The notes under the pieces are model-generated. The model made no database searches. It had not been told where the DNA came from and was given only the letters and a program-made list of their open reading frames with translations. A program made the translations under genes and the position numbers. 64,000 nucleotides of DNA from an uncultured archaeon. GTDB lineage: Archaea > Nanobdellota > Nanobdellia > Pacearchaeales > GW2011-AR1. Each line of letters begins with the position of its first letter. Position 1 is the first letter of the stretch. Shown here one piece after another: positions 28,216-63,498 of this stretch. The stretch lies in assembly GCA_902385655.1 (NCBI GenBank), contig CABMGO010000006.1, forward strand, positions 78,499-142,498, given 5' to 3'.

Positions 28216-28280
28216 CAAAATAATTGCTCAAATTTTTATTTAACTTATTTTTTAAACCGTTAATTTTTAGGTTTATTTTT

Positions 28281-28386
28281 CCTCATGCAGAGAGGCTCTG
28301 CAAGAGTCATCCCGAATTTTGGATTTTTTGTGCAGGTGAGGGAGAGGACACTTTAAAATGGCTAGTCTTTAATGCAGGAAAAGTGT
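28281..28386 (+). repeat. family 2 structured repeat, long form, copy 1
   Basis: The first 74 nt are identical to 36887-36960 and the whole 106 nt is near-identical. Hairpins: CCTCATGCA..TGCAGGTGAGG and ACACTTT..AAAGTGT. Confidence 0.9.
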
Positions 28387-28412
28387 TACTCTTATTTGCC
28401 TCTTTCTCACGC

Positions 28413-28781
28413 TTAGACCTTTGAAATACTAAATACTGTCTTTAATGCTACTATAATTGTCGCAGGAACAAACATAACCAAAAGAGCTGATAAAATCGTG
28501 CTCAATGAAGAAAGTATTGGGATATTTGAAACATAAATTAGTGCAGATTGACCGAACCCAGATACAATGACTAGGGCTAACGAGGCTATCAAGAAAGTAA
28601 TCGAATCTCTGTCTCCGGTATTTAAAAAACCAACTATAATCCCTAGAACCATAAGGAACGCGTAAGGGATATTGCTCCCGTACCCTACGACTGTTTTTTG
28701 GAGGATACCCATTATAACTGCAAAAATAACTCCTACAAGGAATGCAAACGCTCCGACGAGATTATCTCTAGATTTTACCAT
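28413..28781 (-). CDS. hypothetical membrane protein
   Basis: 122-aa ORF with 4 TM helices. Confidence 0.6.
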   Translation of the reverse strand: MVKSRDNLVGAFAFLVGVIFAVIMGILQKTVVGYGSNIPYAFLMVLGIIVGFLNTGDRDSITFLIASLALVIVSGFGQSALIYVSNIPILSSLSTILSALLVMFVPATIIVALKTVFSISKV

Positions 28782-36853: not shown

Positions 36854-36886
36854 AAAAAAAGAATGTTTTGTAGAATTATAAACCTT

Positions 36887-36992
36887 CCTCATGCAGAGAG
36901 GCTCTGCAAGAGTCATCCCGAATTTTGGATTTTTTGTGCAGGTGAGGGAGAGGACACTTTGAAATGGTTGGTTTTTTATGCAGGAAAAGTGT
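36887..36992 (+). repeat. family 2 structured repeat, long form, copy 2
   Basis: Near-identical to 28281-28386. Confidence 0.9.
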
Positions 36993-46021: not shown

Positions 46022-47463
<1,442 letters not shown>

Positions 47464-47918: not shown

Positions 47919-48032
47919 AAATGCTCTTTAAAAAATAACGTCAAACCATGAAGTTCGTGACGATGCGTTGCGGATGGAGTTCGAGAACACAGTAAAGTTA
48001 GATTCACACGAATCTAATATCATGTTCAATGA

Positions 48033-48054
48033 AGACAGTACAATATAGATTAGT
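48033..48054 (+). other. 23S processing-stem 5' strand
   Basis: AGACAGTACAATATAGATTAGT is the exact reverse complement of 51002-51023. Confidence 0.85.
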
Positions 48055-48093: not shown

Positions 48094-48184
48094 TTTATAA
48101 GAAATTATCGTTTCCCACACATATAGTGTGTGGAGGAAGAAGAAAGAAGATTAAGATCTGTTTTATTTTTATAATAAAACAACT

Positions 48185-50985
<2,801 letters not shown>

Positions 50986-51001
50986 TTAAACTTCAATCTT
51001 C

Positions 51002-51023
51002 ACTAATCTATATTGTACTGTCT
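51002..51023 (+). other. 23S processing-stem 3' strand
   Basis: ACTAATCTATATTGTACTGTCT is the complement of 48033-48054. Confidence 0.85.
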
Positions 51024-51266
51024 TTATCTTGAATTATGAAAGATATTGTTGTATTGTGTTTACAACTTTATCTTGAATTTTTAAAAAATATTTTAATTTT
51101 TTTGAGATTTTATCTTGAAGCATAAAGTATTATGTTTCAATTTATTGAAACTTTTATTTGATCTAAAAATTCTTTAAATCTTAATACATACCTTTTTAAA
51201 GCGATTTATTTTGATTTATTTGTCATAGAAATTAGATTTCTAGTTTTTTATGCAAGGAGAAATAAA

Positions 51267-51620
51267 ATGAACGAATTTGGACAAGACGGAGAAGATTCTG
51301 GTCGATCTCAAGGCGGATTCCGAAGAAGTGGCGGCTTCAATAGAGGCGGTTCACGAGGCGGTTTTGGCGGCGGTAGAGGCGGCGGATTTAGACGTGGTGG
51401 TGGATTCAACCGTGGCGGTTTTGGCGGCGGTAGAGGCGGAGGCTTCAATAGGGGCGGCGGCAATTTCAGAAGAAGGTTCAATGATGGACCTCGAGAAATG
51501 CATCCAGCAAAATGTTCTGAATGTGGTAAGGACTGTGAAGTTCCTTTCAAACCAACAGAAGGAAAACCAGTTTATTGCAAAGAGTGTTTTACAAAGAGAA
51601 GACAAACTGAAATACAATAA
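51267..51620 (+). CDS. RGG/FGG-repeat protein with a C-terminal CxxC-x17-CxxC zinc ribbon
   Basis: GGFRRSGGFNRGGSRGGFGGGRGGGFRRGGGFNRGG repeats, then CSECGKDCEVPFKPTEGKPVYCKEC. Other frames across the repeat are artefacts. Confidence 0.75.
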   Translation: MNEFGQDGEDSGRSQGGFRRSGGFNRGGSRGGFGGGRGGGFRRGGGFNRGGFGGGRGGGFNRGGGNFRRRFNDGPREMHPAKCSECGKDCEVPFKPTEGKPVYCKECFTKRRQTEIQ

Positions 51621-51750
51621 GCATAACTAGGAAACTAGAATTATTATTTTTTTAATTTTTACAAAATAATCTCTAACGCTGATAAGGTGCGGAATGAGAT
51701 TTAAATACAAAAAAAACTTTATATTAAATATGGACAGGAGGATATAAAAC

Positions 51751-52047
51751 ATGAGCAAGAAATTATTCGTCGGAAATTTGTCTTTCAAGGCAGAAGAATC
51801 CGCAATTAAGGAAGCATTTGGCCAATTTGGTGAAGTTACTGAAGTAGCTATCATCAAGGACAAATATTCTGGAAGATCAAAAGGTTTCGGTTTCGTAACT
51901 TTTGCAGATGATGCTGCAGCTGATAAAGCTATAGCAGAAATGCATGAGAAGGAATTCGAAGGCAGAAAGCTTACAGTTAATGAAGCTAAGCCAATGGAAC
52001 CAAGATCTGAAAGACCACAAAGATCTTTCAACAGAAATAGCTATTAA
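51751..52047 (+). CDS. RRM-domain RNA-binding protein
   Basis: RNP-2 LFVGNL and RNP-1 KGFGFVTF, in a 98-aa protein. Confidence 0.88.
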   Translation: MSKKLFVGNLSFKAEESAIKEAFGQFGEVTEVAIIKDKYSGRSKGFGFVTFADDAAADKAIAEMHEKEFEGRKLTVNEAKPMEPRSERPQRSFNRNSY

Positions 52048-52448: not shown

Positions 52449-52547
52449 ATAAAAATAGAGAAGAAACACGACTTAAAAATGTTTTGTTTTTGGAATTTTT
52501 TCAGCAAAACCAAGAGTTTAAAAATGATTTTTATATAAGATTTTTAT

Positions 52548-52619
52548 GGGTTCGTAGCTCATTGGGAGAGCGTCCGACTGAAGCTCGGTAGGTAGGGAGT
52601 TCGATTCTCCCCGAGCCCA
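52548..52619 (+). tRNA. tRNA-Phe(GAA)
   Basis: Acceptor GGGTTCG/CGAGCCC, D arm GCTC-ATTGGGA-GAGC, anticodon loop CTGAAGC, and T arm GGGAG-TTCGATT-CTCCC. The TATA box GTTTAAAAATG lies about 25 nt upstream. Confidence 0.9.
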
Positions 52620-52734
52620 TTTTCTTGAATCGAACGACCGTAGTAGGGAGCGAAAATTTTACACCGAGAAATTCTTATTTCATTTATTTAATTTAGAGAT
52701 GTGAAATTTGAGTAGATTCTCCCCGAGCCCATTT
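52620..52734 (+). repeat. tRNA-trailer cassette (family 1, divergent) downstream of tRNA-Phe, ending in a 20-nt re-copy of the tRNA 3' end
   Basis: GATTCTCCCCGAGCCCATTT at 52603-52622 recurs at 52715-52734. GAATCGAAC (52627-52635) is antisense to the T loop GTTCGATTC. Core: CACCGAGAAATT..AATTTAGAGATGTGAAATTTGAGTAG. Confidence 0.85.
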
Positions 52735-53393
52735 CATTTTCTGTTCAACTCATAAGAAATTGTATCGACTCTTTTTCCATCGAGAAATTTATCTCCCGGA
52801 ACAATTTTTGTTTTCACAAAATTAAATTTTTCAAGCAATTTTTGAGAAGCAATATTATCTATCAAAACTTTCGCAATTATCTTCTCTACCTTAAGTTCAT
52901 TAAAAGCGTATTCAATAACCTTGGGCACTATTTCCGAAACGTAACCTTTTCTTCTGTATTCCTTCCCAATCCAATAGCCTATTTTGACTTTTCCTCCTGC
53001 AGAGGCGTTCTGCAAGAATGTCGCCGAGAATTGTTTTGAAGTATGCAGGCGAGGGGAGGACACCTGAGGTTGGTGAGAATGCAGGACAGGTGTCGTTTCT
53101 CCCCTCTTCCAGTTATGCAAATCAAGCAAACCAATAACTTCTTTATTTTTTTTCAAAAAAATTGCAAACCTTATCAGTTCCTTATTAGTTTGATTTTCTA
53201 AAATAAGTTTCTCCGCCTCTTTTTTGTTTAGAGGGTATGGGAGATAGTATGTCAAATAACTTAACTCTTTTTCATTCCCATTTTTAACTAAATCATTGAC
53301 ATCTTTCAAAATTGGCTTTCTCAAAATAATTCTCTCACTAACTATCTCTGTTGGAAGAGTTTCTCTGAAATCTATTTTATTTTTTAGTTTCAT
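52734..53393 (-). CDS. GNAT family N-acetyltransferase (RimJ/RimL-like) carrying a 34-codon in-frame insertion of a family 2 repeat
   Basis: IGYWIGKEYRRKGY..IIAKVLIDNIASQKLLEKFNF is the GNAT core. The segment TPVLHSHQPQ..LQNASAGG is encoded by repeat 52992-53093. Confidence 0.8.
   Translation of the reverse strand: MKLKNKIDFRETLPTEIVSERIILRKPILKDVNDLVKNGNEKELSYLTYYLPYPLNKKEAEKLILENQTNKELIRFAIFLKKNKEVIGLLDLHNWKRGETTPVLHSHQPQVSSPRLHTSKQFSATFLQNASAGGKVKIGYWIGKEYRRKGYVSEIVPKVIEYAFNELKVEKIIAKVLIDNIASQKLLEKFNFVKTKIVPGDKFLDGKRVDTISYELNRK
52993..53093 (+). repeat. family 2 structured repeat, long form, divergent subfamily, inside the GNAT ORF
   Basis: CCTCCTGCAGAGGCGTTCTGCAAGAATGTCGCCGAGAATTG..ATGCAGGCGAGGGGAGG-ACACCTG..CAGGTGT. 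The second hairpin shows compensatory changes relative to ACACTTT/AAAGTGT. Confidence 0.8.
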
Positions 53394-61863: not shown

Positions 61864-61925
61864 CGGGCGTTCTGCAAGAATGTCACCGAGAATTGGCTTG
61901 TTCTTGTGCAAGCGAGGGAAAACTT
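61864..61925 (+). repeat. family 2 repeat fragment (same subfamily as the GNAT insert)
   Basis: GGCGTTCTGCAAGAATGTCACCGAGAATTGG..GTGCAAGCGAGGGAAAAC aligns with 53004-53060. It overlaps the 3' end of ORF 61883-62611. Confidence 0.7.
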
Positions 61926-62611
61926 TCCACAAAATAGTCAATAAAAATATCAATGTCCTTTTCTTCTTCTGCTTCTAACAATTTGTCGTATTCTCCCTTT
62001 AACATATCCTGATCATAACCACCACCAAAAGCATCTTGAGCTTCCTTGTAAAGATAATCCGCAATTTTCCTAGCTCCTTTCCAACCTTCTTTATCATAAC
62101 AGAAAAGAATCTTTTCCATAACATTCTGTTTTCTAAATTCTTCACTATATTTCTTTACTTCAGAGTCAGCATGTTTTTCATATTTTTTACTTACTTCATC
62201 ATCAAATGTAGCCATGACGTATTTTTCTTTGTCTAATGCGGCTTGTTGTACGTGAACCATTTCATGAACGACAATAGGCAAGAGTGCTGGCGCGGAAAGA
62301 AATTCTAAGTCCGCTCTGTTAAAGAAAACAATAATTTCCTTACCTTGAGACTCAGTTCCCGAAACAACATCTGAAAAACTCCATACATCTCGGTCATATG
62401 GCATGCCTCCCTCGCCCCTCTCAAGTAAGAAATGTGAAGCAATTATGTTCAAATTCCACCCCTGCGGAGCTGGGAAAAACCCACAAAGTGTCTTTATATT
62501 GTTCCTAAAGTTATCCTTATTCTTGGTCCAAAAATTAGCTCTGTTGTACTTCAACTCTTGCCTTGCTTTCTTTATTTGCCTAAAAAATCGGTCTATATCT
62601 TTTTGTTCCAT
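61883..62611 (-). CDS. hypothetical HExxH (zincin-like) protein; C-terminus encoded by a repeat fragment
   Basis: VVHEMVHVQQ motif. About the last 13 codons (..SLAQEQANSR) plus the stop lie inside 61864-61925. Confidence 0.6.
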   Translation of the reverse strand: MEQKDIDRFFRQIKKARQELKYNRANFWTKNKDNFRNNIKTLCGFFPAPQGWNLNIIASHFLLERGEGGMPYDRDVWSFSDVVSGTESQGKEIIVFFNRADLEFLSAPALLPIVVHEMVHVQQAALDKEKYVMATFDDEVSKKYEKHADSEVKKYSEEFRKQNVMEKILFCYDKEGWKGARKIADYLYKEAQDAFGGGYDQDMLKGEYDKLLEAEEEKDIDIFIDYFVESFPSLAQEQANSR

Positions 62612-62662: not shown

Positions 62663-63409
62663 CTAATCTATGCTTTTTTCGTTATGCCTAATCTGTTCCA
62701 AAAGTATTCGTTTTGTCCTTTTTGGGTATTTTCTTGCCAAAAATTCAAGTGCCTCTGCCCTAAAATGTGCGGAATGTGGTTCTGCCCGGCTCATAAACTG
62801 AGTATTTGCACCAGAATCATACTTCCATCCCTTTTTCATAAGCCATCTTTCGTGCAACTCATGAATCAAAACATAAGGGACCTCTTTCTTGTAGACATCA
62901 TCATCTATCCAGATCTCATTTTTTGGTATAAATCTGTAAACAAGTTCATGTCCGCCCTGATTAAAGTCAAGATCAAAAAGGTCACGAACATGGTTTCCCC
63001 TTACAATCCAAATATGCAATTTGTCCGTATACTTTGTTAAAATTCTCTTTTTGTGGATTTTTTTATAAGCTTTCGATGTGTGTATATTTTCTGGAACAGA
63101 AGCAAGATATTTTTGTTTCGATCTTTCTCTCTTCTCAACTTTATTAGCTTCCTTAACTGCTTTTTTATACTGCATTCCCTGTTTTCTAAAATTTCTAAAT
63201 GCTAAAAAATAGTCTATCCAATATCTCGCTTCTTTCTTTCCATTTTCATAATCAATCCAGAATTCATTTTCAGGAATATACTTGCATATTTCTTTATAAC
63301 CAAAATTTGGAAACTGTTTATCTAAATTGTGTCTAATCCAATATCCAGAAACATAAAAAACATCGATGCCAGAAAATGAACCAATTTTTTTCAAATAAGG
63401 CCTCTTCAT
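62663..63409 (-). CDS. hypothetical protein with two tandem copies of a ~60-aa domain, the second ending in HELHE
   Basis: The internal repeat VFYVSGYWIRHNLD..YIPENEFWIDYE..ARYWIDYF aligns with IWIVRGNHVRDLFD..FIPKNEIWIDDD..VPYVLIHELHERW. Confidence 0.6.
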   Translation of the reverse strand: MKRPYLKKIGSFSGIDVFYVSGYWIRHNLDKQFPNFGYKEICKYIPENEFWIDYENGKKEARYWIDYFLAFRNFRKQGMQYKKAVKEANKVEKRERSKQKYLASVPENIHTSKAYKKIHKKRILTKYTDKLHIWIVRGNHVRDLFDLDFNQGGHELVYRFIPKNEIWIDDDVYKKEVPYVLIHELHERWLMKKGWKYDSGANTQFMSRAEPHSAHFRAEALEFLARKYPKRTKRILLEQIRHNEKSID

Positions 63410-63443
63410 GAAATAATAAAATAACCTCTATTTATATTAGTTT

Positions 63444-63498
63444 CCCTCTGCATAGAGGGACACTTTAAAATGGAAGGTCTTCAATGCAGGAAAAGTGT
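63444..63498 (+). repeat. family 2 structured repeat, short form
   Basis: CCCTCTGCATAGAGGG-ACACTTTAAAATGG..CAATGCAGGAAAAGTGT. Confidence 0.8.

Follow-up and report, generated by a model that had tools for sequence, protein, structure and literature searches.

The window analysed here is a stretch of 64,000 nucleotides (nt) from an uncultured archaeon (contig CABMGO010000006.1, positions 78,499 to 142,498), with a GC content of ~33%. Its minus strand carries a gene for a RimJ/RimL-type GNAT N-acetyltransferase, and a 102-nt copy of a dispersed hairpin repeat lies within the codons of that gene, in frame. The features of this locus are as follows.

52734..53393, minus strand: host gene, RimJ/RimL-type GNAT N-acetyltransferase, 219 amino acids (aa), or 185 aa without the insert
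52992..53093, minus strand: inserted long-form element, 102 nt or 34 codons, matched by the covariance model R1
53060..53093, minus strand: helix 1, ACACCUG (53093-53087) pairing with CAGGUGU (53066-53060)
53054..53059, minus strand: 5' strand of helix 2, CCUCCC, which has exon GAGGGGAG as an alternative partner in this copy
52993..52998, minus strand: 3' strand of helix 2, AGGAGG, closing round the nested module
53004..53056, minus strand: related module nested in the loop of helix 2, homologous to a solitary module at ~61866-61920
53099..53106, minus strand: host codons AGA GGG GAG (R G E) containing GAGGGGAG, complementary to CUCCCCUC of the element

As a first-pass annotation of the window had noted, the insert is stop-free and contributes exactly 34 codons; the 102 nt encode the peptide TPVLHSHQPQVSSPRLHTSKQFSATFLQNASAGG, with GETTPVLHSHQPQVSSPR and QFSATFLQNASAGGK as candidate tryptic peptides. 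Its GC content is 0.53-0.54 vs. 0.30 for the host gene, and the copy is open in four of the six frames, all three sense frames being open. The 20-nt loop of helix 1 starts with the family-wide motif UCCUGCAUU, the nested module has a hairpin of its own (GGCG-ACA-UUCU-UGC-AGAA-CGCC, 53025-53004), and the terminal AGGAGG is followed by an A at position 52992 and then by the host codon AAA. Excision of 52992-53093 fuses ...NWKRGET to KVKIGYW....

The host protein is identical to NCBI VVB80687.1, which is encoded on a contig of 157,955 nt, and its nearest named homologues belong to 'Candidatus Pacearchaeota'; with the gene content, these homologues point to a probable DPANN-type organism. It matches PF13302 (Acetyltransf_3) with 81.3 bits (E=1.4e-22; curated cut-off 25.4), and the match improves to 92.4 bits (E=5.4e-26) once 52992-53093 is deleted. 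The homologues used for comparison were 115 aligned sequences among the 120 matches listed. In 109 of these 115, 20 residues separate the conserved G in strand beta3 from the W in the GYW motif, when compared to 54 in the window protein; deletion of the insert therefore restores the short spacing that the first-pass annotation had given as normal before the GNAT core motif. The three closest orthologues (59-65% identity) are syntenic, sharing a divergent gene of 184-193 aa, a Metallophos gene, the CysRS gene and an RRM gene, and lack exactly the 34 insert residues. All invariant columns of the alignment are present in the window protein.

An AlphaFold run with the 115 aligned sequences gave a mean predicted local distance difference test score (pLDDT) of 87.6, with the core above 90. 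Strands 85-93 and 134-142 are predicted on either side of the insert, residues 94-133 have no predicted secondary structure, and the insert itself (residues 101-134) has a pLDDT of 40-58. The acetyl-CoA motif of beta4-alpha3 (R/Q-x-x-G-x-G/A) is intact, reading RRKGY after strand 134-142. Foldseek aligned the host core with RimL and with proteins similar to RimJ and YdaF (1nsl, 3fbu, 1s7l (RimL) and 2fck), and the TM-scores, calculated relative to the solved structure, were 0.79-0.88. The model places the 34 extra residues in a predicted disordered loop at the beta3-beta4 turn of a confidently predicted RimJ/RimL-like fold, that is, in a surface loop.

The insert belongs to a repeat family with six copies in the window. 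The other five are listed below.

28280..28386, minus strand: intergenic long form, 27 nt downstream of the stop of the gene 28413..28781 (minus strand)
36886..36992, minus strand: intergenic long form flanked by two minus-strand genes, sharing 95% identity with the copy at 28280
63443..63498, minus strand: intergenic short form of 56 nt, upstream of the gene 62663..63409 (minus strand), 72.6 bits
33026..33081, plus strand: intergenic short form of 56 nt, antisense to both neighbour genes, 72.1 bits
61866..61920 (approximate), minus strand: solitary nested module, providing ORF 61883..62611 (minus strand) with its final ~13 codons and its TGA stop

Fifteen copies were gathered with a covariance model from the window and related contigs. 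The basic unit in these sequences measures 51-56 nt and consists of two adjacent hairpins. Helix 1 has 7 bp (e.g. ACACCUG/CAGGUGU) and a loop of 20 or 25 nt beginning with YCCUGCAUU, a motif kept in nearly all copies. Helix 2 follows directly, with 6 bp (CCNNNN/NNNNGG) and a CUGC-type tetraloop, and is followed by an A. Across the seven short copies 96.7% of the cells were paired, with changes on both sides in 7 of the 13 pairs; across the 15 copies the values were 95.7% and 10 of 13, whereas slid controls reached 37-55%. In the long form, the helix 2 loop of a short form contains a related module of ~51 nt, and the hairpin of this nested module also covaries (UUCU-UGC-AGAA in the GNAT copy vs. 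CUCU-UGC-AGAG in the copy at 28280).

The first-pass annotation had placed the repeat at 52992-53093, antisense in ORF 52734-53393. It is antisense in the sense meant there, as it has the same direction on the plus strand as the copies at 28280 and 36886. The covariance model R1, built from the short copies alone with no long form included, confirms the coordinates to the base: it matches 52992-53093 on the minus strand from first to last base (41.3 bits, E=5e-9). The insert copy is ~25-30% diverged from the other long forms, and thus is not brand new. The solitary module is 97% identical to the GNAT insert over 30 nt; the ORF that it closes, whose end reads …SFPSLAQEQANSR, encodes 242 aa with an HExxH-like motif and has no Pfam match.

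Rfam searches with two element copies returned noise only, with no family or ribozyme match. The pattern GGACACYTN{12,24}TGCAGGANARGTGT gave four matches in genome contigs, from unrelated taxa going by record title only; seven in metagenome contigs, all unrelated GC-rich chance matches; and one in viral contigs. With the 34-aa insert peptide, a HMMER search of 1.84 billion representatives found a single match, an unrelated repetitive protein, so the long-form peptide is not detectably reused in other proteins; the short-form peptides (15-17 aa) are below the detection limit of HMMER. Two candidate roles for the RNA were rejected. A Shine-Dalgarno function of the 3' GGAGGA for downstream genes would have to act over ~30 nt, and the 9-nt complementarity of the loop UCCUGCAUU to AAUGCAGGA of the 23S rRNA (50471-50479) is expected ~0.5 times by chance in the window.

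It had also been claimed that exon sequence just upstream in the mRNA pairs with the insert round the ACACCUG/CAGGUGU hairpin. The minimum-energy fold of the mRNA strand (-51.8 kcal/mol, z=-2.4) does use the GAGGGGAG/CUCCCCUC pairing in this way, enclosing helix 1 only. In the family consensus, however, the same pyrimidine strand belongs to helix 2, where its partner is the AGGAGG at the 3' end of the element itself, so the exon pairing competes with helix 2 and is peculiar to this copy. A pyrimidine-rich strand would easily find a complement here, because the host codons are purine-rich (R-G-E here, K-G-E-R in orthologues, where the position reads K/R-G/S-E/Q-R/H). A purine-rich stretch complementary to the pyrimidine strand after helix 1 is present 5-12 nt upstream of two of the three long forms, with 10 of 12 complementary at the copy at 28280 (28387-28410) and 8 of 8 in the GNAT gene (53094-53106). 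Such a stretch may have arisen by chance from the base composition, contribute to a target preference or be left over from an adjacent copy.

Five other homologues among the 115 carry extra segments with similar peptides, and their DNA shows the same repeat family. All five are syntenic orthologues, and in total 6 of the 12 GNAT orthologues examined at the DNA level contain in-frame copies. Their insertions, by locus (L) and protein (P), are listed below.

Site B (beta3-beta4 turn, as in the window), L017 (P0073): net 45 nt, peptide TPVLHSGHPRESSSAGG
Site B' (a few codons from B), L022 (P0007): net 60 nt, diverged copy, 22 bits
Site A (beta2-beta3 turn, residues 81-84), L001 (P0002): net 54 nt
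Site A, L017: net 45 nt
Site A, L020 (P0078): net 45 nt
Site A, L021 (P0021): net 45 nt

Site A lies between strands 73-80 and 85-93, and site B between strands 85-93 and 134-142. The first-pass annotation held that a homologous peptide at the same position in a relative would speak against an insertion. One such peptide exists, that of P0073 at site B, yet it belongs to the same repeat family and is not an ancestral protein segment, and so it extends the insertion reading.

All seven intragenic GNAT copies are sense-oriented, and six of the seven use one and the same codon phase, even though none of the three sense phases is closed. Their net lengths (102, 54, 45, 45, 45, 45 and 60 nt) are all multiples of 3, whereas the intergenic copies measure 56, 56, 107, 107, 51, 51, 53 and 64 nt. 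This contrast is as translation predicts, and not splicing.

In a neighbour-joining tree the occupied genes are mixed among empty close relatives. The DNA of L024, for instance, is 86% identical to that of L020, and its empty site A reads GAA|ACT GGA AAG. In its helix 2 (UGUUCC/GGAACA) the L022 copy agrees with the intergenic copies found in L001 and L003, and the 25-nt loop of the L001 insert matches the intergenic short forms of the window, the remaining GNAT inserts sharing the 20-nt loop type. Since different subfamilies are represented among the inserts, no fewer than three or four separate events must be assumed. The site A copies of L017 and L020 differ at 5 of 51 nt; four of the five changes are non-synonymous, and two form a compensatory pair in helix 2. 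The respective host genes differ by a synonymous divergence (dS) of 1.6 and a non-synonymous divergence (dN) of 0.235, the elements being ~20 times more conserved than the host synonymous sites. Hence either the elements are far younger than their host genes, which implies repeated insertion at the same codon, or their nucleotide sequence is under constraint. In L023, the closest relative of L017, the empty site A (~1362-1372) reads ...TTA GGA GGA AAA..., where GGAGGAAAA equals the 3' terminus of the element. This is a footprint left by excision, or else a native target similar in sequence to the end of the element.

Comparison of the window gene with the empty orthologue of L002 gave a dN of 0.138 and a dS of 1.6 (dN/dS 0.09). 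The dN branch lengths were 0.066 for the window and 0.080 for L001, both with an insert, and 0.071 for the empty L002. For L020 (insert) vs. L024 (empty) the dN was 0.037 and the dS ~1.0 (dN/dS 0.036). These rates suggest that purifying selection acts as strongly on the genes with an insert as on the empty ones, which makes a pseudogene unlikely, and at a dS of ~1 the low ratio of the latter pair indicates that genes with such inserts persist as functional for long periods.

Comparison of the loci also shows presence/absence polymorphism, nesting and tandem arrangement of copies. An intergenic copy occupies the same spot, between the zinc-finger and RRM genes, in L001 (6743-6793) and L003 (5143-5193), with differences in helix 1 that include one flipped pair; the orthologous spacer of the window (51620-51750) does not contain this copy. 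In L002 two copies (2225-2277 and 2279-2342) lie in tandem, one base apart, upstream of a gene (see also L004, 6-41), so elements can apparently insert directly after the 3' end of another copy, and in the long forms of the window one copy is nested in another. The 32 kb around the empty orthologues of L025 and L026 contained no family copy. Deleting exactly 102 nt from the window gene restores the orthologous codon count. We found no terminal inverted repeats, the 5' ends (ACACCUG or GCUCCUG) and 3' ends (GGAGGA or GGAACAA) not being complementary, and in the flanks of the 15 copies there was no direct repeat indicative of a target-site duplication and no conserved motif 5' of the element. 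AAA follows 12 of the 15 copies, and A-runs are common in the genome. No transposase domain was detected in 20 otherwise unassigned window ORFs; the other window ORFs look like housekeeping genes. From these comparisons we infer that the element moves, or moved, as DNA. The lack of inverted repeats and duplications, taken with the seamless empty sites, most resembles the hairpin-recognising HUH systems (IS200/IS605 derivatives, REP/RAYT).

The best reading, and the one we consider probable, is that the element is a translated and tolerated insertion similar to a Rickettsia palindromic element (RPE). The segment is an insertion relative to its homologues, absent in 109 of 115; it is a family member with conserved hairpins; it lies in a loop, predicted to be disordered, at a turn; and it leaves the frame intact in a gene that keeps its invariant residues and shows purifying selection with no non-synonymous excess. 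In this mechanism a RimJ/RimL-type gene would have received a non-autonomous structured element in the codons for its beta3-beta4 hairpin turn. The gene would stay open and the element be translated because the element is GC-rich, has no sense-frame stops and measures 102 nt. The ribosome would read through it as a flexible loop, with no removal from the mRNA; we infer that GC-richness and lack of stops are what make it harmless. The product would be a 34-residue disordered surface loop, and the enzyme, its GNAT core and acetyl-CoA motif untouched, would keep working. The same family would have entered, or persisted at, the beta3-beta4 and beta2-beta3 turns in several related lineages, so that these turns are either the sole permissive positions in a target that is strongly preferred or the places where the element is retained. 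The earlier suggestion of a tolerated loop insertion by a MITE-like element thus holds as regards a tolerated insertion of a mobile repeat; 'miniature inverted-repeat transposable element (MITE)-like' is only loosely right, because there are no terminal inverted repeats and no detectable target-site duplication.

Several points weigh against a tolerated insertion of this kind. (i) Seven copies were found in the 12 GNAT orthologues (~6.6 kb) vs. one partial copy, the module at the end of ORF 61883..62611, in ~125 kb of other coding DNA; in the ~65 window genes, no further intragenic copy beyond that module was found with the model filters off. The copy density in the GNAT gene is roughly a hundred-fold that of other coding sequence, even without the copy that prompted the analysis, and passively tolerated junk does not explain this concentration in one gene. 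Selection for the two turns that alone are permissive accounts for where in the gene the copies lie, not for the preference for the gene. (ii) Nor does a passive element explain why the elements are conserved above the level of host synonymous sites. (iii) The frame preservation may be inflated by ascertainment, as frame-breaking inserts split the gene and would rank below the 120 matches listed. (iv) The case for mobility is built on presence/absence only, with no transposase in the window and no terminal inverted repeats or target duplication.

The alternative that best survives, although we consider it unlikely, is that the element is not passive. Its nucleic-acid structure would be selectively kept in the gene, for instance because it adjusts the translation or stability of the acetyltransferase mRNA, as an RNA structure or as a binding site for a protein, or it would be a homing-type element with a specific target, and translation would be a side-effect. 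The site A copies of L017 and L020 (10% diverged, with four of five changes non-synonymous, at a host dS of 1.6) point to constraint, or to copy youth, at the nucleotide and not the peptide level. Helix 2 covaries between orthologous copies at the expense of the amino-acid sequence (CCUCUC/GAGAGG, CCUUUC/GAAAGG, CCUCC/GGAGG), and the YCCUGCAUU loop is kept in nearly all copies. The same two codon positions are filled in lineages with empty relatives between them, all seven intragenic copies are sense-oriented, and six use one codon phase out of three open ones. Conversely, the family also occupies ordinary intergenic DNA in both orientations, it is absent from the 32 kb of two related genomes with an empty GNAT gene, and most orthologues have no element, so the gene does not need it. 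Element-level selection on active master copies could likewise conserve the sequence. A G.U wobble bias that would mark the sense strand as RNA was dropped, as counts of 7 G.T vs. 5 C.A show no strand asymmetry. A tentative possibility is that the element is a targeted or host-retained structured mini-element, found at the same two turns in at least four lineages and always in sense orientation.

That the element is removed from the mRNA before translation is very improbable. The tRNA-splicing endonuclease, with RtcB as the ligase, could in principle do this, as could a system similar to SOS splicing, which is a hairpin-triggered excision described in animals (PMC12779559). Stable helices define the ends of the element, its exact loss from 52992-53093 gives the canonical protein length, and exon GAGGGGAG pairs with it. 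Archaea have EndA and RtcB. However, an exhaustive scan of the mRNA strand at 52900-53200, with outer helices of at least 3 bp required, found no bulge-helix-bulge (BHB) motif (3-nt bulge, 4-bp helix, 3-nt bulge) joining ~53094 to ~52991. The only BHB candidate with a 102-nt spacing (53020/52918) is weak, with 3-bp outer helices, and misplaced, as it would delete the conserved GNAT core. Since no BHB motif spans the element ends, a tRNA-type intron is not supported. In addition, there is no pairing between the two ends, Rfam gave no family or ribozyme match, and the intragenic copies are all in frame and stop-free, which splicing would not need. The RNA-level excised element that the first-pass annotation had listed as a possibility, taken as an archaeal BHB intron, is thus not supported, in view of the lack of an in-frame-spaced motif across the ends and the frame preservation of every intragenic copy.

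A recently inactivated pseudogene whose frame is open by luck is just as improbable: a 34-residue insertion into a 185-aa enzyme could do damage, and with four of six frames open an open frame after insertion is not improbable by chance, but the invariant residues are all retained, the insert is at a surface turn, the copy is too diverged from the other long forms to be brand new, the five other insert-bearing orthologues are intact and constrained, and the window branch has no excess of dN. The recently disrupted gene that had been considered earlier finds no support in the intact frame, the dN/dS of 0.09 against the empty orthologue or the equal dN branches with and without insert, although on sequence alone a very recent inactivation of the window copy keeps some probability.

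The RPE is the closest known phenomenon. RPEs are hairpin repeats of ~100-150 bp, intergenic as well as in frame in unrelated functional genes of a reduced genome, at structurally permissive sites (PMC10969869). Both systems consist of short hairpin repeats in intergenic and in-frame positions, add a peptide at fold-compatible sites and have no evident associated transposase. They differ in the host, which here is archaeal (DPANN-like), so that a sequence relation to RPEs is not expected; in the unit, only 51-56 nt here, with two adjacent helices, a conserved loop motif and growth by nesting; and in that the archaeal element shows no sign of peptide-level conservation. In the DNA examined, the archaeal copies occupy one gene at two fixed turns, whereas RPEs are spread over many genes.

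Like the prokaryotic MITEs, including those of Sulfolobus and haloarchaea, the element is small, multicopy, non-coding, non-autonomous and mostly intergenic, with presence/absence polymorphism and nested and tandem copies. Unlike them, its ends (ACACCUG.../...GGAGGA) are not mutual inverted repeats, there is no target-site duplication, it is GC-rich in an AT-rich genome, and its removal restores the orthologous frame to the base. Archaeal BHB mRNA introns (cbf5, Crenarchaeota) resemble it as short inserts whose exact removal gives the canonical protein, but the element has no BHB motif, is in frame and stop-free, and is a member of a dispersed repeat family. The features that define a classical MITE (inverted repeats, duplication) and those that define a BHB intron are missing from it. 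With the palindrome-associated elements of IS200/IS605 and with REP/RAYT it shares hairpin-defined ends, the absence of target duplication, seamless presence/absence consistent with precise excision, and perhaps a loose preference for a short flanking motif (AAA after 12 of 15 copies, in a genome where A-runs are common). In contrast to these, no TnpA, RAYT or TnpB gene was found in the window or the loci, its two hairpins are unlike each other, and it has no conserved 5' tetranucleotide. The IS200/IS605 and REP/RAYT families are not known to colonise genes in frame. The 'byp' elements of Magnusiomyces mitochondria and T4 gene 60 are frame-breaking or stop-bearing bypass systems with matched take-off and landing codons. 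They too are short, GC-rich, mobile hairpin inserts in coding regions of an AT-rich genome; the archaeal insert, by contrast, has an open frame and no matched flanking codons.

To our knowledge, Rickettsia is the only textbook case of selfish hairpin repeats that colonise working genes in frame, and the literature searched gave no archaeal description of it. A tolerated, translated insertion would make a small-genome archaeon a case, with a very compact 51-nt element type that grows by nesting. The element would add coding sequence twice, as the 34-residue GNAT loop and as the C-terminus of ORF 61883..62611. In annotation such inserts may be mistaken for frame errors or introns; for protein evolution they may be a ready source of new surface loops; and for mobile-element biology the case is that of an element defined by its hairpins, which lacks inverted repeats and duplication and has no known enzyme. 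Should the element be targeted or retained, it would imply a new mechanism of site-specific insertion and precise excision that uses neither inverted repeats nor duplication, or an in-frame RNA or DNA structure with a regulatory role, or, as the least likely of the three, an excision from the mRNA guided by the hairpins. The repeated occupation of two fixed turns, together with nucleotide-level conservation, provides a concrete system in which to ask whether such inserts are targeted, functionally retained or filtered by selection.

The neighbourhood of the GNAT locus contains further features.

46022-47463: 16S rRNA gene, by archaeal model match
With the rRNA genes: tRNA-Ala, by archaeal model match
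48176-50990: 23S rRNA gene, by archaeal model match

A 26-nt inverted repeat (48029-48054 and 51002-51027, 96% complementary) flanks the 23S rRNA gene, and is the usual archaeal pre-rRNA processing stem. At 51267-51620 a Gly/Arg-rich protein with a treble-clef zinc finger (PF23477) is encoded, adjoining an RRM-domain protein at 51751-52047, and this gene pair is kept beside the GNAT locus in relatives; RRM proteins are probably uncommon in archaea. An exact 20-nt direct repeat, GATTCTCCCCGAGCCCATTT, is present at 52603-52622 and 52715-52734, where none is expected by chance. Its first copy covers the 3' end of tRNA-Phe (52547-52620) and the second, 112 nt away, abuts the GNAT stop codon, so that the pair looks like an att-type remnant of integration into the tRNA-Phe gene.

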